Notes: a model not told the origin generated them from the letters alone. Positions 54,273-64,000 are shown, counted from the stretch's first letter. The stretch: 64,000 nucleotides of DNA from an uncultured Acidobacteriota bacterium (GCA_963741955.1 CAVUKB010000006.1:416001-480000), one strand, 5' to 3'. A program made the numbers and translations.

Positions 54273-54357
54273 GTTCGACTCCTCTTCGTTTCGTTCGGGT
54301 TCTGCAGCAGGAGTCGTACGGGTGGCAGGAAAAATACAGGGAGCCGAACGGTCGGAG

Positions 54358-55045
54358 GGCATCGCGGATCGTGGATCGAAAAGCAGCGCGGATCGTGGAT
54401 TGAGGATCGTGGATCTGAAAGACATCGATTATCGTGTATCGCGCATCGAGGATCCGAGATGCATCGACGCTCGAGGTTCCGCGGCCAGCCCCGTAGGGGC
54501 GTTTGACAATAGCCCAGGACGCAGTCCTGGGGTTCCGGTCCTGCAGCCCACACTCCCTCAGCCCCGGAGGGGCGATTGAACCATCCCATTCCTCGAGGCT
54601 CGAAGGACATCGTGGATCGTGGATTGAGGATCGCGGATCTGAAAGACATCGATTATCGCGTATCGCGCATCGAGGATCCGAGGTGCATCGACGCCCGTGG
54701 TTCGGGCACAGCCCCGTAGGGGCGTTTGACAATAGCCCGGGACGCAGTCCTGGGTTTCCGGTCCTGCAGCCCACACTCCCTCAGCCCCGGAGGGGCGATT
54801 GAACCATCCCATTCCTCGAGGCTCGAAGGACATCGTGGATCGTGGATTGAGGATCGCGGATCTGAAAGACGTCGAGGGGCTCGCATCGTGGATCAAACAG
54901 CCTCGCGCATCGAGGATCCGAGGTGCATCGACGCCCGTGGTTCGGGCACAGCCCCGTAGGGGCGTTTGACAATAGCCCGGGACGCAGTCCTGGGTTTCCG
55001 GTCCGGAAGCGCCCCGAGAGCCCCGTAGGGGCCATTGAACGATTG
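54358..55045. repeat. Three tandem REPIN-like units (spacing 223 and 240 bp)
   Basis: GCCCCGTAGGGGCGTTTGACAATAGCCC(A/G)GGACGCAGTCCTGGG at 54488, 54711, 54951 with near-identical GATC-rich linkers. Confidence 0.9.
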
Positions 55046-55206: not shown

Positions 55207-55284
55207 TGGGGTGGGTAGTGGGATTCGAACCCACGACCTTCGGAGCCACAATCCGACGTTCTAACCAACTGAACTATACCCACC
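55207..55284 (-). tRNA. tRNA-His (GTG)
   Basis: G-1 GTGGGTA / TACCCAC-C-CCA; anticodon arm TCGGA-TTGTGGC-TCCGA; GTTCGAATC. Confidence 0.97.
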
Positions 55285-55313
55285 ACAAGGGGCAAACAAC
55301 GACGCGGGCGATC

Positions 55314-55390
<77 letters not shown>

Positions 55391-55446: not shown

Positions 55447-55512
55447 GCAACATGGCGGGTGCGAATCGAATTTCGCAGATTCCAGGCGACTCGAATTCGG
55501 CTCGTACAGCAA

Positions 55513-55610
55513 CCCGGGGACTGCGACCCGGGCTATTGTCAAACGCCCCTACGGGGCTGTCCCCGAACCTCGGCCCTCGATGTCTTTCAGATCCTCGATC
55601 CGCGATGCCT
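55513..55610. repeat. Partial inverted REP-like unit
   Basis: CCCGGGGACTGCGACCCGGGCTATTGTCAAACGCCCCTACGGGGC, the reverse complement of the 54488-type unit. Confidence 0.8.
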
Positions 55611-55650
55611 TTCGAGCTTGTCACCCTCCGCTCTTCGACGGCTGCGCGTC

Positions 55651-56601
55651 TCATCGGGCGGTCGGACGTGCGCCGGTCAGCTCATGCTCGAACCATTTCC
55701 ACGTCCGCGCGAGACCGTCTTCCAGTTCGACCGGCTCGGGAAGTCCGGTCAGGTTGCGAAGCTTCGTCCCATCGAGGACGCTCCTCTGCTGCTCGCCGGC
55801 TTTCGCCGGGCCGTGAACGGACGGGACCTCGATCCCGGAGACCTTCCGCAGGGTCGCGTAGAGGTCGACCACCGAAGTCTCGACCCCGGTTCCGACGTTG
55901 AAGGAGCCTTCGAGCTTCATCGAAGAGGCAGCCATGTTCGCGCGAACGACATCGGCGACGAAGACGTAGTCGCGGGTCTGAGCTCCGTCGCCGTTGATGG
56001 TCACCGGCTCGCCCCGCAGCATTTTCCCGGCGAAGATCGCGACCACTCCCGCTTCGCCGTCCGCGCGCTGCCTCGGGCCGTAGACGTTCGCGTAGCGGAG
56101 CGCCACCGCGGAGAGGCCGAAGACCTGGCGGTAGTAGTTGAGGTACTGCTCGAATGCGAACTTCGAGCAGCCATACGGCGACATCGGCATGGCGGGATGT
56201 TCCTCGGTCTGAGGGACGTGGATCGGATCGCCGTAGATCGCTCCGCCGCTCGACGCGAAGACGATCCGCTCGACGCCGGACTCCTTCGCCGCTTGCAGCA
56301 GACGCAACGCTCCGACGACGTTCACCTCTGCGTCGAAAGCCGGATCGGCCACCGAGTGCCGGACGTCCATCTGCGCTGCGTGATGACTGACCAGATCGAC
56401 ACCGCCTTCGAACGCACGCGCCACGGCACCGGCGTCGTTGAGGTCACCAACGACGAGCTCCGCACGCGGGTCGACGTTCTCACGCCGTCCCGTCGAAAGG
56501 TTGTCGAGAATGCGCACCTTCCAACCGTCGGCGAGATATGCGTCGGCCAGATGCGATCCGATGAAGCCGGCCCCGCCGGTAATGAGAACGGTTTTCGTCA
56601 T
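55651..56601 (-). CDS. NAD-dependent NDP-sugar epimerase/dehydratase (GalE/WbpP-like extended SDR)
   Basis: [27 protein letters not shown] (YxxxK), [18 protein letters not shown]. Confidence 0.93.
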
Positions 56602-57018
56602 TCAGTTCCCCTTCTCCCCTTTCTCCAGAATCAAGGTCTGTCGCTGCGACAGTTCCTGGCGGTCATTGAGCACCCTTCCTTCCATCTCGATCCAAGCGTG
56701 GCCGATCACGGCCTTTCCGGGATCTCGGTCGAGCGACACACGTAGAACGGCGGGATATCCCCGGCGCAGAAGCATGTCGCGAAGTGCGAGAGACCTGGTA
56801 AGGCAAGCCGGACGGAGAACGTGCCACCGGGCCGCCGCAGCAAGATCCCGTGCGATCGTCTCCGCGGACTTCGCCGGGACGCGCCGTGCCGGCTTTATCG
56901 GCAGAAGCATCGTCCGGATGACGTGTCGGGGGCGGAATGCGACCATCGCACTCGCCCAGGTCAGCCGAAGGTACGCCTCGGCGAACAGCAACAGGTCTGA
57001 CACGGTGAACGGCGGCAT
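56602..57018 (-). CDS. Lasso-peptide B2-type (transglutaminase-like) cysteine leader peptidase
   Basis: ACLTRSLAL...RRG...GHAWIE...LND Cys-His-Asp pattern; start moved to ATG 57018. Confidence 0.85.
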   Translation of the reverse strand: MPPFTVSDLLLFAEAYLRLTWASAMVAFRPRHVIRTMLLPIKPARRVPAKSAETIARDLAAAARWHVLRPACLTRSLALRDMLLRRGYPAVLRVSLDRDPGKAVIGHAWIEMEGRVLNDRQELSQRQTLILEKGEKGN

Positions 57019-57037
57019 AACCCCGGTTCCCCGGCAC

Positions 57038-57304
57038 TCACTCTTTCGGGCTGACGAAACCGCGATCGCGGAGGAGCTCGAGAAAATCCGCGACGTCCCG
57101 ATCCGCTTCCTCGCGAGGAATTCCGTATTCGCGCGCAAGCTCGGTGGCAATGGCGGCGTCGTCATTCTCGCGGAGCCGCTTCCAGATGAAGCTCCCGGTC
57201 GGATTCAGCCCGAGGGTCGTGCCGGTCGCAACGTCGACGAGCACGGCTTCCGGTCCGACCATCTGCCAGGCAACGGACGATGTCGTTTCCCATTTCATGT
57301 TCAC
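57038..57304 (-). CDS. PqqD family / RiPP recognition element (RRE)
   Basis: EAVLVD....LGLNPTGSFIW...LAREY......DVADFLELLRDRGFV; ~86-88 aa; AGGAG RBS. Confidence 0.92.
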   Translation of the reverse strand: MNMKWETTSSVAWQMVGPEAVLVDVATGTTLGLNPTGSFIWKRLRENDDAAIATELAREYGIPREEADRDVADFLELLRDRGFVSPKE

Positions 57305-57311
57305 GTTGCTC

Positions 57312-58121
57312 CTACGATTTTCTCGCCACCACGTGCGCGTATCCGTGAATCACAGTTGCGACGATCTCGTACCCCGCCTCCCTCAACTCGTCTTCAACTT
57401 CGCCGGGCGTGTACATACGGCGATAGAAGAATGTCGCCATAGACTCTCCGGGCTCGAGCGGCCGCCGTCCCAGGATTCTACGGAGGACGCTCGCCACCCG
57501 TCGTCTCACGCCGACGGAGCGCGATTCGCCGCCCCGCTTCCAGAACGATACGAGCAGAGGCGCGCCCGGTCGCAGACCGCGATGGATGGCGCGGAGGAAT
57601 TCTATCCTACGCTCCCGTCCGATCATGTGGGTGTACGCCGCCCATCCGACCACGGCGCCGTCGAATGGAGCATTTCTCTCCGGAACCGCGTCCGGAGCAG
57701 CGAAGAGTGTCTCTACCGAACCTCGAGGAGCGAGCTTCTCGACGTTTGCGCAGAGCTCGCGATACAACTCCGGAACACACTCGGTCGCCGTGACCTGATG
57801 GCCCCGCCGGACCAGATCGAGGACCTCCCGCCCTCCACCTGCACTGGTCACGAGGAGATGTCCGTCCGCCGGAAAGTGCTTCGTGATCGCTCTCTCTTCC
57901 CACGCGTAAAGCCCGGCCAGAGTGTGGTGGTCGTCCCGGTACTTCCCGTCCGTCCGGTAGTCCTCGGCCGTCATACGGTCGAGCGTTTCATCCGATGCAA
58001 AACAGAAGATCAGCAACTCTACGGCAGCGATCCAGTGGCGTACGAAGAAATTCGGAAGGCGGTAGGCCGCACGGAGCAGCTTCACGGTACCGCTCGCACG
58101 CGTTTTCGTCGGAGGCGTCAT
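57312..58121 (-). CDS. Class I SAM-dependent methyltransferase
   Basis: LLVTSAGGGRE (motif I variant), VTATEC, FDGAVVGW, LRPGAPLLVS; ATGA overlap with the upstream gene. Confidence 0.8.
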   Translation of the reverse strand: MTPPTKTRASGTVKLLRAAYRLPNFFVRHWIAAVELLIFCFASDETLDRMTAEDYRTDGKYRDDHHTLAGLYAWEERAITKHFPADGHLLVTSAGGGREVLDLVRRGHQVTATECVPELYRELCANVEKLAPRGSVETLFAAPDAVPERNAPFDGAVVGWAAYTHMIGRERRIEFLRAIHRGLRPGAPLLVSFWKRGGESRSVGVRRRVASVLRRILGRRPLEPGESMATFFYRRMYTPGEVEDELREAGYEIVATVIHGYAHVVARKS

Positions 58122-58939
58122 CGACCTGCGCCGGCGTCCTCGAGAGCGCGGACGAACGGCTCCCACACCGGCGCTTCCGGCGACCATCCCATCCGAAACA
58201 CCGGAATGCTCTCGACGAGATTCTGGATGTTCAAGAGCGTCGCCTCCCACAGCCCGCGAACCGGATACACACGCAGCGACCGGACCAGAGCCTTCACCGC
58301 GTCTCCTCGCTCGAGCCGTGACAGCGAGAACCGGGCACTCTTGTCCAGCTCGGCCACAGCCCCCATCGCCACCATCCCGCGAGGGGCATCCATCGCAGCC
58401 AGCGCGCCCCAGAAGCCGTTGGCACCGAGCACGAACGGCATCCCTCGCACCACCACTTCCTCATCGGAAATGACGTCGAAAGGGCTCGTGGAAGCAAGCG
58501 TCGTTTTTCCCGCCCCCGAGGGACCGAAGAAGGCCCAACCACGCGCCCCGTCGGACACCGCAGCTCCGTGCAGCGCGAATCCGCCGTCCAGCGGGAGCAC
58601 CGCGGTCAGAGCGGTTCTCAACGCCGCCATGAATGCGTACGTACAGCGGTGGCGGCGAAATAGACTTCCCCTCCGCTCGAATGGAAGGACCTCGGCCTGA
58701 AAGTCGTCGTGGACGACTCGCACACGATCCTCGAACCAGACGATGCGAGCCGGGGTTCCGCGCTTCGGTACGTCGGGGAATTGAAAGATCGCCTCCGGCA
58801 CGATGTCCATCCGGAATTCCGGGAGCGGCGAGACGGCGGTGGGGGTTCCGATGGTTCGGAGGTAAGTTTCTTCTTCCTGAGTAAACGGGAAGCCGCCGAG
58901 ATTTTCGATCCGAAATGGAAGTTCCGCGAGATGGATCAA
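58118..58939 (-). CDS. HPr kinase-related P-loop protein
   Basis: FALHGAAV...FFGPSGAGKTTLA...VISDE; ATGA overlap with the radical SAM gene. Confidence 0.8.
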   Translation of the reverse strand: MIHLAELPFRIENLGGFPFTQEEETYLRTIGTPTAVSPLPEFRMDIVPEAIFQFPDVPKRGTPARIVWFEDRVRVVHDDFQAEVLPFERRGSLFRRHRCTYAFMAALRTALTAVLPLDGGFALHGAAVSDGARGWAFFGPSGAGKTTLASTSPFDVISDEEVVVRGMPFVLGANGFWGALAAMDAPRGMVAMGAVAELDKSARFSLSRLERGDAVKALVRSLRVYPVRGLWEATLLNIQNLVESIPVFRMGWSPEAPVWEPFVRALEDAGAGR

Positions 58940-59982
58940 GCGCTCGCGCGCTCCTTCCGGCGCCGCTCTTCGGCGACCTCCCAGGCGATCTCCGCGCGCG
59001 TGAGGAACGCCGGGTCGGGGTTCAGAGGATCCCCGGTCGCCTCGGCGGCGAGCGCGGGACAGTACGAGTAGATCGAATACGGAGGTTCCATCGTGCGCAT
59101 CCGTCCATTCGCGTCGTCTGCAACCGTCGCAGCATCGCGCCGGACCTGCGAGGTCCTCCAGAGCTCACGAAGCCGGATCTCACGTACGTTCCCCAGAGAC
59201 GTATGCCGCCACTGGATACAGGGGAAGACGTTTCCTTCGGGGTCAACGGCCATGGTGATGCGCCCCAGCCCGCAGTTGGCGGCCTTCTCCGGACGCTCGA
59301 TGAATCCGAGGGTATTCGATTCGAGTCCGATCTCGGCAACCCGCCGCATCGCGTCACGCGAGGCGGTGTAAACCAGTGGACCACGATCTCCATCGTCGCG
59401 GGGAGTGATCGTCGCATCCATCCGGTACTTCACGCCGAGGGAGGCAGCGAGGTCGAGCATCTGATCGATCTGATGCTCGTTCAGATTCGTCACGGGCGTC
59501 TTCAGAAGTACTCGCACTCCTTCATCACGAAGGCGCGTCAACCCGGAGAGCATCGCGTCGAAGGACCCCGGGAGTCCGGTCGTCCGGTCGTGGACGTCCC
59601 GCGTCGCCCCGTGCATGCTGATCTCCACAGCTGCCGGCTGCAACGCAGCGATCTCTTTCGCCGTCTCCGCGTCGACCAGACTTCCGTTCGTGAAGACCCG
59701 CAATGCGAACGCGCGTTCCCGAACCGCCTTCGCTACGGAAAGGAAGTCCGGGCTCGCCAGCGCTTCTCCTCCCGTGAGTGTGACGGTGAGGGTGCCGAGC
59801 TCGCGTAGATCGTCGAGGACGGTCATCCATTCGTCGCGCTCGAGCCGGCGGACATCGGAATGCCGCGGGTTGTAGCAGAAGACGCACCTCCAGTTGCAGC
59901 GGTACGTCAGCTCGAGAGACGCGGTGAGGGGCTGAGCGAGTGCGAATGCCCGGTCGGAGAACGAGCTGGAAGGAGTACCCAT
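58936..59982 (-). CDS. Radical SAM peptide maturase with truncated SPASM/Twitch domain
   Basis: LELTYRCNWRCVFCY, LTGGE, FTNG, ISMHG...HDRTTG..GSF; C-terminal NCGLG...EGNVFPC...LGNV...YCPA. Confidence 0.92.
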   Translation of the reverse strand: MGTPSSSFSDRAFALAQPLTASLELTYRCNWRCVFCYNPRHSDVRRLERDEWMTVLDDLRELGTLTVTLTGGEALASPDFLSVAKAVRERAFALRVFTNGSLVDAETAKEIAALQPAAVEISMHGATRDVHDRTTGLPGSFDAMLSGLTRLRDEGVRVLLKTPVTNLNEHQIDQMLDLAASLGVKYRMDATITPRDDGDRGPLVYTASRDAMRRVAEIGLESNTLGFIERPEKAANCGLGRITMAVDPEGNVFPCIQWRHTSLGNVREIRLRELWRTSQVRRDAATVADDANGRMRTMEPPYSIYSYCPALAAEATGDPLNPDPAFLTRAEIAWEVAEERRRKERASA

Positions 59983-59989
59983 CAGGCGC

Positions 59990-60154
59990 TCAGCTGAAGG
60001 TTCCGCCGATCTGACAACCCGTATCGCCCACCGTCTTCGAGCAGCTCACTCCGACGGCGGCAGCATCGAGCTGCTGTTCCCAGGCGATGGCTGGCTTCTC
60101 GTAATCTGGCCGGTGCTCTCCCTGGCTCTCGGAGGGGGTTTCTGTTTCTTTCAA
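59990..60154 (-). CDS. Putative RiPP precursor peptide, 54 aa (MKETETPSESQGEHRPDYEKPAIAWEQQLDAAAVGVSCSKTVGDTGCQIGGTFS)
   Basis: AAGGAG 5 nt before TTG 60154; YxxP leader motif; small-residue core with two Cys; stop 7 nt before the rSAM ATG. Confidence 0.8.
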   Translation of the reverse strand: MKETETPSESQGEHRPDYEKPAIAWEQQLDAAAVGVSCSKTVGDTGCQIGGTFS

Positions 60155-60222: not shown

Positions 60223-60765
60223 TTACGGTCGGATCTGGAATGAAGCCGGAGCCGCGCACTTCAGTGGGTCGCCGTCCACGTACGCCTCTGCCTTCCAGGT
60301 CCCGTACAACGAATGACTCATGATCAATGTTCCGGCGACCGGAAGCCGCACGCTGGTTCCGAGCTCCTTTCCTTTCGACCAGCTCACCGGTTCGAGCACG
60401 CGCACCGGCATCGGAAGCGGATAGTCTTCGAGCTTCCTCTGTTTTCCTTTCCCATTCGCGTCGTACGTGAAGGGAATCGCGGTCGACTGGTAGAGATAGC
60501 CGTGGGGAGTGAAGATCCTCACTTCCACCTGGTGGTCGCCGGAGAAGCGATTCGCCGAGCCAGGGTTGAACAAGACCCAGAGATCGATGTCCAGGATCCG
60601 GGTCGCGGAGAAGCCGGCTGCGGGCGCTCCTCCGTCCGATTGCATCGATGTGGCCACCACGGAGACACACCCGCCGTTCCCGCCGGCAGCAGCGAATGCG
60701 GGTGAAACCGCACCTGCGAAGACGACGGTCATCGCCAGAAGAGTCGATCGTATCGTTTTCATCAT
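60223..60765 (-). CDS. Secreted hypothetical protein (beta-sandwich-like)
   Basis: Signal peptide ending SPAFA; GGGGAG RBS; GTWKAEAYVDG Ig-like end; two Cys in the mature part. Confidence 0.75.
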   Translation of the reverse strand: MMKTIRSTLLAMTVVFAGAVSPAFAAAGGNGGCVSVVATSMQSDGGAPAAGFSATRILDIDLWVLFNPGSANRFSGDHQVEVRIFTPHGYLYQSTAIPFTYDANGKGKQRKLEDYPLPMPVRVLEPVSWSKGKELGTSVRLPVAGTLIMSHSLYGTWKAEAYVDGDPLKCAAPASFQIRP

Positions 60766-60778
60766 TCACTCTCCCCTG

Positions 60779-63700
60779 TCACGGCGTGACGCAGTAGACG
60801 GAGCCACCTTCGGTCCCCACGTAGATCCAGTTGTTGAGGAAGTCGATGATCGGCGCTCCGACCGAGCCGGCATCGATGGAGCGGACGGTCTGCGACGGAG
60901 AAGCCGTGTTCAGGCCGTTCAGCCTGACCAGTTTTCCGTCTCCGGTGCCGACCCATCCGTCGGTTCCGTTGGTGACGATGTTCGACGGCGAGACGAGAGA
61001 TCCTGCACCGCTGGCCGGAGTTGCCCAGTTCAGTGTCGCGGAGGGGCCGTTGTCGGTCAGACTCCAGACCCGGTTCGTCGTCGTGAAGTAGAGTCGAGTC
61101 GTCGCCCAGTCGGGATAGACGTACGTCTTGATCGGCCCGTCGCCGGTTGGATAGCTCCACAACAGTGTGCCGGTCGCTTCGCTGAGCGCGTAGACGTCGC
61201 CGTTGTTGTTTCCGACGTACAACACGCCGTTCCGGATGGTCGGTGCCGTCTCGGCATCGCCGATCGGAAGAGCCCAGGCCAGCGATGCACCGCCTGCGGT
61301 GTAATTCAGGCACCAGACTGTATTCGAGCTTCCCCCGGATTCCGCGCGACTGGTGAAAAAGAGCCTCTGGGTTGCCGCATCGACGCTCGGGATCGCGGTG
61401 ACTACGCCGATCGCGCTCGCTCCTCCGCCGTTGTCGTAGCTCCAGACGGTCGCTCCCGTTGCGGCGTTGAGCGCGTAGACCACATTCCCCGTGGAGGAGT
61501 TTCTCGTCGCCGCAAACACGAGATCCAAGCCGCCGATCGTGCTCTTGTACTGACGGAATGCGATCGCCACCGGGGCCTGCACCATGTCGCCGAGCTGCGC
61601 GCTCATCCAGAGCCGGACTCCGGTGTCTGCGTCGAAACAGTAGACGTGTCCGTCCTGCGAGGAGACGAACGTGACGCGGGTGCTGCCCGAGATCGGGAAA
61701 AGTGTGGTCGGAACGATGATCGTCCGCCCCTGGGCCGGCGCGTTCATCGCCGGCGGCTTCCACTCCTTCGGTGCGAGCTCGGGCCAGTCACCACCCGGAA
61801 CGCTGACGTTCATCGAGTGGAGGCGGCGATCGTTCGAGACGCTGTAAACCGCGGTGTAGCTCGTCGGCGGAGCGAGCGCAGTCGCGCCGGAGTTGTAGAT
61901 CCAGCGCACGTCCTGGCCCGCCGACGTATCGCGAGGTGATCCGGAAGCGAAAGTTCCGGTCGAGTAAACTCCGGGACCCCCGGTGGCGGTCGCGGTCTGG
62001 CACGAGGAGAGTGATGACTCGCAGCTCCCGGTCGCATCGACGGAGGAGACCTGGTAGGAGTAGGTCGAACCGCCGGTCACGGCAGCGTCATCATAGCTCG
62101 TTGTGGCGACGCCGCTCGTCAGGAGCGTGGCCCCGGTGCACGTCGCGCCGTCGGCGCGGTAGACGTTGTAGGTCGCGCCGGCGGGCGTGCCCGCGGTCCA
62201 CGCGAGGTGGATGGTGTTGCTCGTGGGCGTCGTAAGCGTCAGGCCCGTCGGCGCGCCGGGGGTGGTGCACGAGGTGGTGGTCACCGAGACGCACGAAGAG
62301 GCGACGGACTCGCAGTTGCCGGTGGCGGCATCGACGGCAGTGACGCGGTACCAGTAAGTCGCTCCGGTCGTCGCAGTCGTGTCCGTGTACGACGTTCCGC
62401 TCACGGGTGACGCGTTCAACTTCGTGAAGATACCCGCCGGGCACGTCTCGGTCGAACGGTAGACGTTGTAGGTCACTCCCGCACCGGAGCTGGCCCACGT
62501 CACTGTATTCGAGGTCGAGGAGAGTGGTGATGCGACCACGCTGGCGGGAATCGCCGGCGCGCTGCACGTCGCACACGTGCTGAATCTGAAGCTGCCGATT
62601 CGCGTGTTCCAGTTGAACGATCCATTCGCAGCCAGGTACTCGGTCGTGAACCAGAAAGTGCATTCGTCGGTGGGATCGACGGTGAGCGACGAATAGTCGC
62701 CCCACCGATGCAGCGTCCCGGTCTGAGAGCCTGATCCAGGAAACATCGTGGCCTCGGTCTGCAGAGTGTTCGCCGGATCCGTGGAGAGCCTCCCGGTGTA
62801 TTCGATCGACGGATTGATCGAGGCGCTCGAGATGCTGTATCCGATTGCGATGTCCCCGAACTTGTCCATCGCGATGCTTCCCATCCATCGATCCTCGGTG
62901 GTGCTCGGGTTGTACGTGCTTTGCTGGTAGAGGCTCGGTGTCCCGTTCGGGTCACGAATCTCGTACCACCGGAGCGCCGACTGCTGCGCGCCGCCACCGT
63001 CGGGATCGACGGAATGTGTCACCACCAGCGATTCATGCGTCCCGAAATTGCGATAGGAGAGATGCCACATCAACCGGTCGGCCAGAGTATCGAGGGTATT
63101 CGACGTGCCCGCCTGGGCGATGCAACTTCCTGCCGCGCCATTACACGCGATTGTGATCGGACTGACTCCTATGATCGTCGGACCGCTGATACTCGAATTT
63201 GCGGGCGTCGCAAAATCCGAATGGAACTTCCAGAGCTGTAGACAGCCGCTCGCGTCGGCCGCGCCGCAGCCCGCCGAGGTATTGTCGAATGAGACGAAAA
63301 AGTTCGGCTCCCCGGGCGGAGGTGGGGTCGTTCCGTCCCAGTCTGCAGGGAGAAGACCACCATAGGTGGTTCCGAGATTGAAGTAGATCGCCGATGCGGA
63401 AGGGTTCCCGGCGAGCATTGCGGCACGATCGTAAGCGTAGACGCCGGCGCCTTCCCAGTTCTGGAGCCTCCTGCCGGAGAATTGGTTCACCGACATGTAG
63501 TACGCGTCCCTCCAGACCCCGGACTTGCCGTAGTCGTTGAAGACATCAGTGGTCCCGGCGACGCTCGGGAACGCGTAGCGATACCAGGTTCCGGTCGGAT
63601 CCGGCGATGTGGAGACCGCGACGCACTGATAGAACGGAGCGGCCGGATACCCGCTTCCACCGACCGTGAACGCGAATTGACTCATGAACCAGCGGTCGGC

Positions 63701-64000
63701 CGACGCATCGTACATGACCAGCGGGTCACCCTGGTTCGTGCTGGCACAAAGCCCGCCACCGCCCGAGAAACCGCTCCAGATCGTGTTGCCGGGTGCAGGA
63801 TTGCCGGACGTCGGATAGACGATGCCCCCGTTCTTGTCGAAGATCAGGAAGTCGGTGTTGACCCACTGGATGTAGTGATTGGGGCCGACCTCGCCCTCGG
63901 TATCGGGTGGAGCGACGGATGGCGAGTAGCCTACGATGCCCGTGCCCACGCCTTCGAAGGTCCCGTTCAAAACCGGGGCGAACGTCGCTCCGCCGGCCGT
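60779..64000 (-). CDS. Large secreted-type protein (>1070 aa, 5' end outside window): RWGDYS-type domain + 2 FN3 + PQQ/BamB-like beta-propeller
   Basis: Frame open to 64000; PPDTEGEVGPNHY, GDPLVMYD, HRWGDYSS; FN3 (TYNVYR..YWYRVTAVD); repeats VYCFDADTG..LW, VYALNAATG..VWSY, VYALSEATG..LWSY. Confidence 0.85.
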   Translation of the reverse strand, partial: TAGGATFAPVLNGTFEGVGTGIVGYSPSVAPPDTEGEVGPNHYIQWVNTDFLIFDKNGGIVYPTSGNPAPGNTIWSGFSGGGGLCASTNQGDPLVMYDASADRWFMSQFAFTVGGSGYPAAPFYQCVAVSTSPDPTGTWYRYAFPSVAGTTDVFNDYGKSGVWRDAYYMSVNQFSGRRLQNWEGAGVYAYDRAAMLAGNPSASAIYFNLGTTYGGLLPADWDGTTPPPPGEPNFFVSFDNTSAGCGAADASGCLQLWKFHSDFATPANSSISGPTIIGVSPITIACNGAAGSCIAQAGTSNTLDTLADRLMWHLSYRNFGTHESLVVTHSVDPDGGGAQQSALRWYEIRDPNGTPSLYQQSTYNPSTTEDRWMGSIAMDKFGDIAIGYSISSASINPSIEYTGRLSTDPANTLQTEATMFPGSGSQTGTLHRWGDYSSLTVDPTDECTFWFTTEYLAANGSFNWNTRIGSFRFSTCATCSAPAIPASVVASPLSSTSNTVTWASSGAGVTYNVYRSTETCPAGIFTKLNASPVSGTSYTDTTATTGATYWYRVTAVDAATGNCESVASSCVSVTTTSCTTPGAPTGLTLTTPTSNTIHLAWTAGTPAGATYNVYRADGATCTGATLLTSGVATTSYDDAAVTGGSTYSYQVSSVDATGSCESSLSSCQTATATGGPGVYSTGTFASGSPRDTSAGQDVRWIYNSGATALAPPTSYTAVYSVSNDRRLHSMNVSVPGGDWPELAPKEWKPPAMNAPAQGRTIIVPTTLFPISGSTRVTFVSSQDGHVYCFDADTGVRLWMSAQLGDMVQAPVAIAFRQYKSTIGGLDLVFAATRNSSTGNVVYALNAATGATVWSYDNGGGASAIGVVTAIPSVDAATQRLFFTSRAESGGSSNTVWCLNYTAGGASLAWALPIGDAETAPTIRNGVLYVGNNNGDVYALSEATGTLLWSYPTGDGPIKTYVYPDWATTRLYFTTTNRVWSLTDNGPSATLNWATPASGAGSLVSPSNIVTNGTDGWVGTGDGKLVRLNGLNTASPSQTVRSIDAGSVGAPIIDFLNNWIYVGTEGGSVYCVTP

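Follow-up and report, generated by a model that had tools for sequence, protein, structure and literature searches.

A putative SynChlorMet-like peptide maturation cassette and its conserved precursor family in an uncultured Acidobacteriota bacterium

The genome of an uncultured Acidobacteriota bacterium (GCA_963741955.1) carries, in the 64,000-nucleotide (nt) stretch CAVUKB010000006.1:416001-480000 that was analysed here as a whole and is called the window, a tight array of seven minus-strand genes at 55651-60154, which begins with the gene of a 54-amino-acid (aa) peptide. The array is read here, with a probability of about 0.7, as a peptide maturation cassette of the ScmC/PqqD/radical S-adenosylmethionine (SAM) type, resembling the SynChlorMet (SCM) cassettes, in which the enzymes of the operon, judged by their characterised analogues, would probably cross-link, phosphorylate and trim the peptide. 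The proposal of an earlier note on this DNA that the genes form a modification cassette for a peptide made by the ribosome and modified after translation (RiPP), with a genuine and conserved precursor, is borne out. A cassette type that had been catalogued without a product is now tied to a very large unnamed precursor family, and the sequence pattern of the precursor allows the family to be mined. Coordinates follow the numbering of the 64,000-nt stretch, and family scores are given in bits against the curated cut-off of the respective Pfam or NCBIfam model.

The gene array and the precursor family

The open reading frames (ORFs), read from the sequence, follow one another in the direction of transcription as the peptide, a radical SAM enzyme, a kinase-like protein, a methyltransferase, a PqqD protein, a B2 protease and a nicotinamide adenine dinucleotide (NAD)-dependent epimerase. 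The peptide gene (59990-60154) starts with TTG at 60154, 5 nt behind an AAGGAG ribosome-binding site, and its stop codon is separated by 7 nt from the ATG (59982) of the radical SAM gene (58936-59982). The stop codon of the latter overlaps the start of the kinase-like gene (58118-58939) as TTGA (58939/58936), and the kinase-like and methyltransferase (57312-58121) genes overlap in the same manner as ATGA (58121/58118). Gaps of 7, 19 and 0 nt precede the PqqD gene (57038-57304, GTG at 57304), the B2 gene (56602-57018, ATG at 57018) and the epimerase gene (55651-56601, ATG at 56601), respectively. All reading frames of the cassette are intact and translationally coupled. Such an array, with seven genes on one strand, overlaps or gaps of 0-19 nt and a 54-aa peptide in the first place, had been described in the earlier note; each junction was now read directly, and the observation is confirmed, far beyond chance. 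The operon extends further than was given there, and two more same-strand genes ahead of the peptide, spaced by 13 and 68 nt, belong to it too.

The peptide, which was delimited by its sequence, its ribosome-binding site and alignments, contains Tyr18-Glu-Lys-Pro21 and Trp25 in the leader and Cys38, Lys40, Cys47 and the C-terminal Ser54 in the core. In 16 of the 24 genome loci compared (the window and L043-L065), 19 peptides of this kind were found beside homologous enzymes. The design common to them comprises a leader with Tyr-x-Lys-Pro followed by aliphatic and aromatic positions, a core with a Cys about 20 residues past the Tyr, usually followed by x-Lys, and a second Cys 6-10 residues further on, and a tail of 5-8 residues with Ser as the last one. 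Four positions do not vary across the 19 peptides: the Pro, the two Cys and the Ser at the end. Among the eight loci without a precursor ORF, seven have a profile match elsewhere in the genome or a weaker one in the locus, and the profile search found no precursor in genome G256. None of the nine peptides tested matched an NCBIfam model, and the one peptide tested against Pfam had no match.

The metagenome search was conducted with a degenerate DNA pattern of the leader motif of the window subfamily, which carries about 40 bits of information. The pattern yielded 81 metagenome stretches, and all 80 that were read encode an in-frame peptide of the same design, 77 of them complete, two cut by the contig end and one fused through a change of frame. 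Two Cys, a Lys at position Cys+2 and a C-terminal Ser are present in all 77 complete peptides. The 55 distinct sequences from the motif to the stop codon all end with Ser, have exactly two Cys and the Lys at Cys+2, and place the first Cys 21 residues after the Tyr. The small ORF is thus a real, conserved precursor and not a chance ORF; it recurs in 16 of 24 genome loci and in each of the 80 metagenome loci read.

A profile built from the 19 peptides matched 6,945 clusters at 90% identity (E 1e-3), none of which has a precomputed Pfam family. Among these 6,945 clusters, the best 120 all end with Ser, carry two Cys within their final 30 residues and contain Cys-Gly-Lys; all names given by the sources among these 120 listed clusters are 'hypothetical protein', and two source names indicate Terriglobia and Acidoferrales. 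In the phylum, the precursor profile matches 89 of 401 genomes, representing 63 of 228 genera; the phylum-wide tallies for this profile and for that of the kinase-like protein take in the unpublished genome G152. The predicted complex of PqqD and the precursor scored 0.48, and the control with PqqD replaced scored 0.47.

Two loci (L064 5552-6348 and L061 9122-9567) contain two or three tandem precursor genes with differing cores. In the metagenome contig L143, from position 1332, one long open frame takes in the precursor and goes on through the region of PqqD and radical SAM, which may be a frameshift or an assembly error.

The maturation enzymes and the constant core

The radical SAM protein was assigned by family matches (Radical_SAM 86.3 vs 29.5; SPASM 33.5 vs 21.5, over part of the domain) and by the conservation of its cysteines. 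Six of them, Cys29, Cys33, Cys36, Cys237, Cys255 and Cys308, are invariant in 35 orthologues. The first three form a CX3CX2C motif, Cys237 and Cys255 form CX12GX4C in the C-terminal part, and Cys308 is the third C-terminal one. The CX3CX2C motif and the C-terminal auxiliary-cluster cysteines place the enzyme among the radical SAM/SPASM-twitch peptide maturases, with a shortened SPASM (twitch-like) C-terminal domain; since it has three C-terminal cysteines only, it would hold one auxiliary cluster and not the two of a full SPASM domain. Among proteins of solved structure, PqqE (6c8v, E 6.7e-19) and the thioether-forming SkfB (6efn, E 4.7e-15) come closest. The best NCBIfam models are MftC (116.8 vs 265), NirJ and PqqE (106.7 vs 381.35), all far under the cut-off, and the sactipeptide models are far under theirs as well (StsB 93 vs 625, AlbA 75.3 vs 850).

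The kinase-like protein was characterised by its homologues, their alignment and a structural model. A search of 5.8 billion proteins gave 73 homologues, including the window's own, with the nearest being 42-47% identical. Of the 72 others, 67 carry the precomputed family PF27840, named in the Atlas as ScmC, the SynChlorMet cassette protein, and the Atlas puts the window protein among the ScmC clusters (features 0.97, structure template modelling (TM) score 0.78-0.84). Its motifs include a Walker A at residues 139-147, Ser158-Asp159-Glu160 and His124. The Walker A, the Ser-Asp-Glu and a His are retained in an alignment of 23 members, and in 23 orthologues from related loci the Walker A, Ser-Asp-Glu and His124 are at least 95% conserved. 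In a profile alignment, the P-loop region, with the Walker A and the Asp-containing motif, matches ATP-dependent phosphoenolpyruvate carboxykinase (PEPCK).

The AlphaFold model of this protein has a pLDDT score of 92.1 and a predicted TM (pTM) score of 0.89, and the best Foldseek matches in the PDB, up to E of about 2e-3, are all PEPCK (from 5.4e-7) or HprK/P (from 2e-4). Both the fold and the nucleotide-binding motifs assign it to the P-loop kinases of the HprK/PEPCK fold. It is accordingly a protein of phosphotransferase fold whose nucleotide-binding residues are intact. None of the curated NCBIfam models identified it as ScmC, as HprK-related kinase A or as another named equivalog. The kinase profile matches 235 of the 401 genomes of the phylum at E 1e-5, but full-length matches as strong as the window's own are found solely in G059, G256 and G365. 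A contig scan with the kinase alignment and generic P-loop patterns gave at least 599 stretches, with three weak relatives among the matches listed.

The stand-alone PqqD-family protein is a peptide-binding protein (RiPP recognition element) by its match to Pfam PqqD (71.7 vs 23.4); on the lasso-specific models it scored 40.8 vs 70 (NF033530, PqqD chaperone, its best NCBIfam match) and 30.7 vs 80 (NF033536). The B2 protein, 138 aa from the ATG at 57018, is a lasso-type transglutaminase-like cysteine protease that matches both the lasso B2 model NF033537 (63.6 vs 33) and Transglut_core3, PF13471 (65.8 vs 26). Its Cys, His and Asp stand, by eye, in sequence contexts that we take to be those of the B2 catalytic triad. 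It is the sole PF13471 gene in the genome, which is 99.1% complete, and no sequence match to it was found in the PDB. By these profile scores, B2 is of the lasso leader-processing type, as had been supposed, and PqqD, which stays under the cut-offs of the lasso-specific models, may be of that type too.

The methyltransferase (269 aa from the ATG at 58121) is a divergent one, assigned to class I SAM-dependent methyltransferases through weak profile matches and homologue names. Its earlier designation holds insofar as the named proteins among its 79 homologues, besides the window's own, are all SAM-dependent (class I) methyltransferases, but the score on Methyltransf_25 is under the cut-off (24.7 vs 27), the NCBIfam matches are weak, and the PDB gave no useful match. 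The last protein of the array is a GalE-like NAD-dependent epimerase/dehydratase (PF01370 209.4 vs 20.9; TIGR01179 GalE 184.2 vs 262.3).

The comparison of related loci separates these genes into a constant set and additions. The order in G059 and G365 is peptide, PqqD, radical SAM and kinase. In G365, a B2 gene (44.4 vs 33) lies just upstream of the peptide gene; in G059 the contig reaches only about 75 nt beyond the peptide start on the upstream side (L043 end 11393, ATG 11318), too little to judge whether B2 is present. The next-best 20 genome loci contain the trio of kinase-like protein, PqqD and radical SAM in that order, and none of their scanned proteins reached an SCM, GeoRSP or HPr-rel-A cut-off. 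In the metagenome, PqqD is the next gene after the peptide in 63 of the 65 loci with at least 400 nt downstream, and the order PqqD, radical SAM, kinase occurs in 17 of the 19 loci with at least 2600 nt downstream. Of the 77 complete metagenome loci, 8 contain a B2 gene, and neither the methyltransferase nor the epimerase turned up in any of them.

Judging by this gene content, the constant and apparently ancestral unit is composed of the peptide, PqqD, the radical SAM enzyme and the ScmC-type protein, with B2 as an evident occasional recruit and the methyltransferase and epimerase seemingly private to the window's version. The earlier picture of lasso leader-removal machinery in which a radical SAM enzyme had replaced the cyclase does not agree with a constant set that lacks B2 and with its occurrence in so few relatives.

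A degraded cassette was observed in G256:C13 (L044, 8366-9842), where only the last third of the radical SAM gene is left beside an intact kinase-like gene; PqqD, on the opposite strand there, precedes a 1779-aa protein that is homologous to the large secreted one described below.

Proposed maturation and rival explanations

In the proposed pathway, the 54-aa peptide would serve as the substrate, and the stand-alone PqqD would bind its leader (Tyr-x-Lys-Pro-x-aliphatic-x-aromatic). The radical SAM enzyme, with one auxiliary Fe-S cluster on three Cys, would most likely make thioether cross-links from the two invariant Cys, with a substrate Cys bound, as we infer, at the open iron site of the auxiliary cluster. 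[quoted passage not shown] In the window lineage alone, the SAM methyltransferase would add a methyl group, and in this lineage and a few relatives the lasso-type B2 together with PqqD would remove the leader. The product would probably act extracellularly with, or on, the co-transcribed beta-propeller and immunoglobulin (Ig)-like proteins.

The analogy for the kinase step comes from lasso clusters, where, according to a review of lasso tailoring, the linear precursor receives a phosphate from HPr-kinase homologues on the hydroxyl of its C-terminal Ser, the precursors concerned have little in common beyond this Ser, and the lassomycin precursor is modified by a C-terminal O-methyltransferase (PMC8498205). 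Because those homologues act on a C-terminal Ser, the presence of an ScmC-type kinase would be best explained by the invariant terminal Ser of the peptides, a feature that had escaped the earlier note. By the same analogy, the extra methyltransferase of the window may act on the same C-terminal end. The pathway predicts mass changes of -2 Da per cross-link and +80 Da on the last Ser, and for the window's version also +14 Da and the loss of the leader. With its built-in leader protease, the version in the window recommends itself as a candidate for making a mature product in a heterologous host.

Several points weigh against this reading. No product is known for any member, and every chemical step rests on analogy. 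No protein of the window reaches the SynChlorMet, GeoRSP or HPr-rel-A cut-offs. By sequence, the kinase-like protein matches PEPCK models alone, and under the cut-off (23.3 vs 26.5), so that the earlier name, HPr-like kinase, is upheld by the matches of the model to PEPCK and HprK/P but not by the sequence matches. The radical SAM enzyme may do something other than form thioethers, because its top NCBIfam matches are maturases of the mycofactocin, NirJ and PqqE kinds and not those of sactipeptides or ranthipeptides. None of the 77 related loci shares the gene order of the window or has its methyltransferase or epimerase, and conservation therefore lends no support to a part of these two enzymes in the pathway. 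The metagenome counts (80 of 80, 77 of 77) overstate independence, because many loci are near-identical and the figures describe one clade. The codon usage of B2 was scored poorly by a crude gene caller (codon log-odds), and no exporter is present in the operon.

The rival that survives best concerns the two upstream genes. The gene next to the peptide (60223-60765, minus strand) encodes a 180-aa secreted protein without a Pfam or NCBIfam match, which is an Ig-like beta-sandwich in its AlphaFold 2 model (pLDDT 77.2); its PDB matches are generic Ig-like folds alone (TM 0.25-0.53), and no function was drawn from them for that reason. Ahead of it, the same strand encodes a large secreted protein of about 1170 aa, located at 60779-64000 with its start about 290 nt past the window end, as read from the genome sequence. 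Its parts are a signal peptide, an N-terminal domain of no known family (in the Atlas, residues 1-470 are without one), FN3-like repeats and, at the C-terminus, a beta-propeller of PQQ_2/BamB type (Pfam PQQ_2 43.3 vs 27.6). Beyond the window, at G000:C6:480308-486771 and on the same strand, three more proteins are encoded: one of 925 aa with BNR/FN3, a paralogue of the 180-aa protein with 169 aa, and a PQQ_2 beta-propeller protein of 830 aa. With these three additional same-strand genes preceding the cassette, the locus spans about 15 kb and its secreted partners are duplicated.

Large secreted proteins beside the peptide gene are a recurring theme, which had been missed in the earlier note. 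In 34 of the 48 metagenome loci with at least 700 nt upstream, the gene immediately before that of the peptide encodes a homologue of the large protein. The pair of the large and the 180-aa proteins is kept in the cassette through four gene orders: large, 180-aa, peptide, radical SAM, kinase, methyltransferase, PqqD, B2 and epimerase in the window; large, 180-aa, B2, peptide, PqqD, radical SAM and kinase in L090; B2, PqqD, kinase, large, 180-aa, peptide and radical SAM in L095; and PqqD, large, 180-aa, peptide, kinase and radical SAM in L058. In another branch (L054, L057, L060, L061, L062 and L064), a Peptidase_C25 protein of 1145-1464 aa with FN3 or PKD domains follows the radical SAM and peptide genes; the call was obtained for five of the six scanned, plus L062. 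Proteins of about 180-210 aa come after these peptidases. They were considered as relatives of the 180-aa protein of the window and dropped, since a by-eye alignment suggests an extracytoplasmic function (ECF) sigma factor; their conserved blocks resemble, by eye, what we take to be ECF sigma factor regions 2 and 4. In L081 (202-613), L109 (732-1143) and L133 (10303-10714), small ORFs of 52 and 49 aa replace the large secreted protein upstream.

The mature peptide might be no free natural product but a small subunit, a ligand or a peptide-derived cofactor of the secreted beta-propeller/BNR and Ig-like proteins, an explanation that is unlikely and still stands first among the rivals. Pyrroloquinoline quinone (PQQ) serves beta-propeller quinoproteins, and in quinohemoprotein amine dehydrogenase a small subunit cross-linked by a radical SAM enzyme sits in the beta-propeller subunit. 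The persistence of the propeller and the approximately 180-aa proteins through four gene orders, the large-protein homologue immediately upstream in so many loci and the two more large proteins with a second 180-aa paralogue directly upstream in the genome are all consistent with such a role, and so is the fact that MftC and PqqE, to which the radical SAM enzyme is best related among named proteins, mature cofactors; mycofactocin precursors also have an invariant C-terminal residue. Against it, the propeller matches are at the level of repeats (PQQ_2, BNR) and brought out no quinoprotein catalytic features, and a BLAST comparison found no homologue of the secreted proteins in the Terriglobia-type subfamily (L047-L052, L056). 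Six other loci have a C25 peptidase after the peptide gene instead, and the peptide has no evident export route. If a cross-linked, C-terminally phosphorylated peptide were indeed made to serve these secreted proteins as a small subunit, ligand or prosthetic group, the approximately 7,000 unnamed precursor clusters would mark a class of peptide-dependent extracellular protein complexes, widespread in soil Acidobacteriota and so far unrecognised, and not a further group of peptides resembling antibiotics.

The invariant terminal Ser and the two invariant Cys also admit another chemistry, in which the kinase-like protein would make no stable phosphoester but activate the Ser for elimination to a C-terminal dehydroalanine, to be trapped by a Cys or hydrolysed to a C-terminal amide, and the radical SAM enzyme would carry out chemistry unrelated to it. 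Class III/IV lanthipeptide synthetases take such a route, in which a phosphate is first added and then eliminated. The cassette contains no lyase or cyclase domain, however, and the characterised peptide kinases of this fold yield stable Ser phosphates or polyphosphates; this rival comes second and is doubtful.

It is quite improbable that the window holds a rearranged copy in decay or out of function, with no product being made. Its gene order is unique, the methyltransferase and epimerase are extra, the relative in G256 is clearly degraded and the coding score of B2 is low. Nevertheless, its frames are intact and translationally coupled, and the six radical SAM Cys, the Walker A, the presumed B2 triad and the peptide invariants are all kept.

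The lasso question was approached through the cyclase, whose absence had been stated in the earlier note. The genome has 11 matches to PF00733. The six strong ones are all glutamine-hydrolysing asparagine synthases (363-480 vs 267.1), which score 131.5-228.5 vs 525 on the lasso cyclase model. The weak matches checked are an NAD synthase, a QueC-like protein and a divergent 624-aa asparagine-synthase-like protein (L066, G000:C6:507049-508926, PF00733 24.4 bits), located 31 kb from the operon and surrounded by glycosyltransferase, carbamoyltransferase and acetyltransferase genes of a polysaccharide cluster. A lasso cyclase (NF033535, cut-off 525) was found neither in the operon nor among the nine examined PF00733 proteins, which scored 35.8-228.5 bits or are other enzymes; one weak PF00733 match (C1:302047-302226, 36.3 bits, in a 265-aa frame) stands outside this result. 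No cyclase precedes the cassette in the operon either, where the genes encode secreted proteins. Lasso precursors have a small residue at the N-terminus of the core, an Asp or Glu at core positions 7-9 and a Thr at leader position -2, and no such pattern was seen in the 27-peptide alignment.

For want of a cyclase among the homologues examined, the reading of the cassette as a lasso system was rejected, and the earlier statement stands within that scope. A canonical lasso system with a cyclase encoded elsewhere in the genome is hardly credible: PqqD and B2 are the lasso leader-processing pair, the Tyr-x-x-Pro-x-aliphatic motif of the leader resembles lasso leaders and a divergent asparagine-synthase-like gene lies 31 kb away, but the best examined asparagine-synthase homologue reaches 228.5 vs 525 and the six strong ones are asparagine synthases, the divergent protein sits among glycosyltransferases, B2 is absent from 69 of 77 related loci, G068 and G224 have related cassettes and no PF13471 match, and the alignment contains no conserved acidic residue 7-9 positions past the candidate N-terminus.

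The flanks of the operon contribute a few additional observations. A consensus scan for promoters and terminators inside the operon gave nothing above chance. Downstream, on the same strand, are the tRNA-Pro and tRNA-His genes (55207-55390), flanked on both sides by copies of an intergenic element of about 223 nt. The copies of this element, at 54350-55010 and 55503-55615, comprise three to four in tandem and an inverted partial one (81-90% complementary) that comes directly after the epimerase stop codon.

Comparison with known systems

The literature search found no paper on the cassette, its leader motif, its product or its substrate; subscription journals and supplements lay outside the search. 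A term search of PMC10288494, a radical SAM compendium, and of PMC7470986 gave no mention of a kinase or of Acidobacteria, and the supplement of PMC10288494 may list the family. PMC13692751 describes an unrelated archaeal system. The word 'undescribed', which the earlier note had used for the whole system, fits the product and the precursor but not the enzyme trio, which is already catalogued as a bioinformatically defined set.

Like the paeninodin-type phosphorylated lasso systems, the cassette combines a stand-alone PqqD and a B2 protease with a kinase whose fold belongs to the same class and with a precursor whose last residue is Ser. Those systems use an asparagine-synthase-like cyclase, whereas the window cassette has a radical SAM enzyme and no such cyclase; two Cys are invariant in its core, which bears no macrolactam signature, and B2 is missing in most of its relatives. 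The sactipeptide and ranthipeptide maturases (SkfB, AlbA, CteB) have in common with it an auxiliary-cluster radical SAM enzyme, a Cys-containing core and leader recognition of the PqqD type. In contrast to them, the recognition element in the window is a separate protein, the radical SAM enzyme has three C-terminal Cys, and a kinase-like protein is a constant partner.

The PQQ and mycofactocin pathways (PqqA/D/E; MftA/B/C) provide the best relatives of the radical SAM enzyme, PqqE and MftC, and they also employ a stand-alone PqqD-type chaperone and a small peptide with invariant residues near the C-terminus. The peptide motifs differ, however, and the other pqq and mft genes are absent from the cassette. 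On the GeoRSP models TIGR04302 and TIGR04303, the scores were under the cut-offs (22.2 vs 100 and 91.5 vs 400). For the HPr-rel-A system, PqqD scored 28.3 vs 35 (TIGR04353), the kinase-like protein had no match (TIGR04352), and the kinase of the relative L062 scored 26.6 vs 200.

The closest likeness is to SynChlorMet (ScmC, ScmD, ScmE/ScmF; TIGR04248-04251), which shares the P-loop protein of the HprK/PEPCK fold, the stand-alone PqqD and the PqqE-like radical SAM enzyme. This likeness had been pointed out in the earlier note, and PF27840 (ScmC) on the homologues of the kinase-like protein substantiates it. At the same time, the window proteins scored 34.9 vs 100 for ScmD, 101.1 vs 400 for ScmE and 79.6 vs 400 for ScmF, with no ScmC match at E 0.01, and the relative L062 scored 22.7 vs 125 for ScmC. 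SynChlorMet has two radical SAM genes, whereas the window cassette has one and possesses, in addition, B2, the methyltransferase, the epimerase and the secreted proteins. To our knowledge, the TIGRFAM text identifies no SCM precursor; the window-type cassette, by contrast, comes with a precursor family that can be named.

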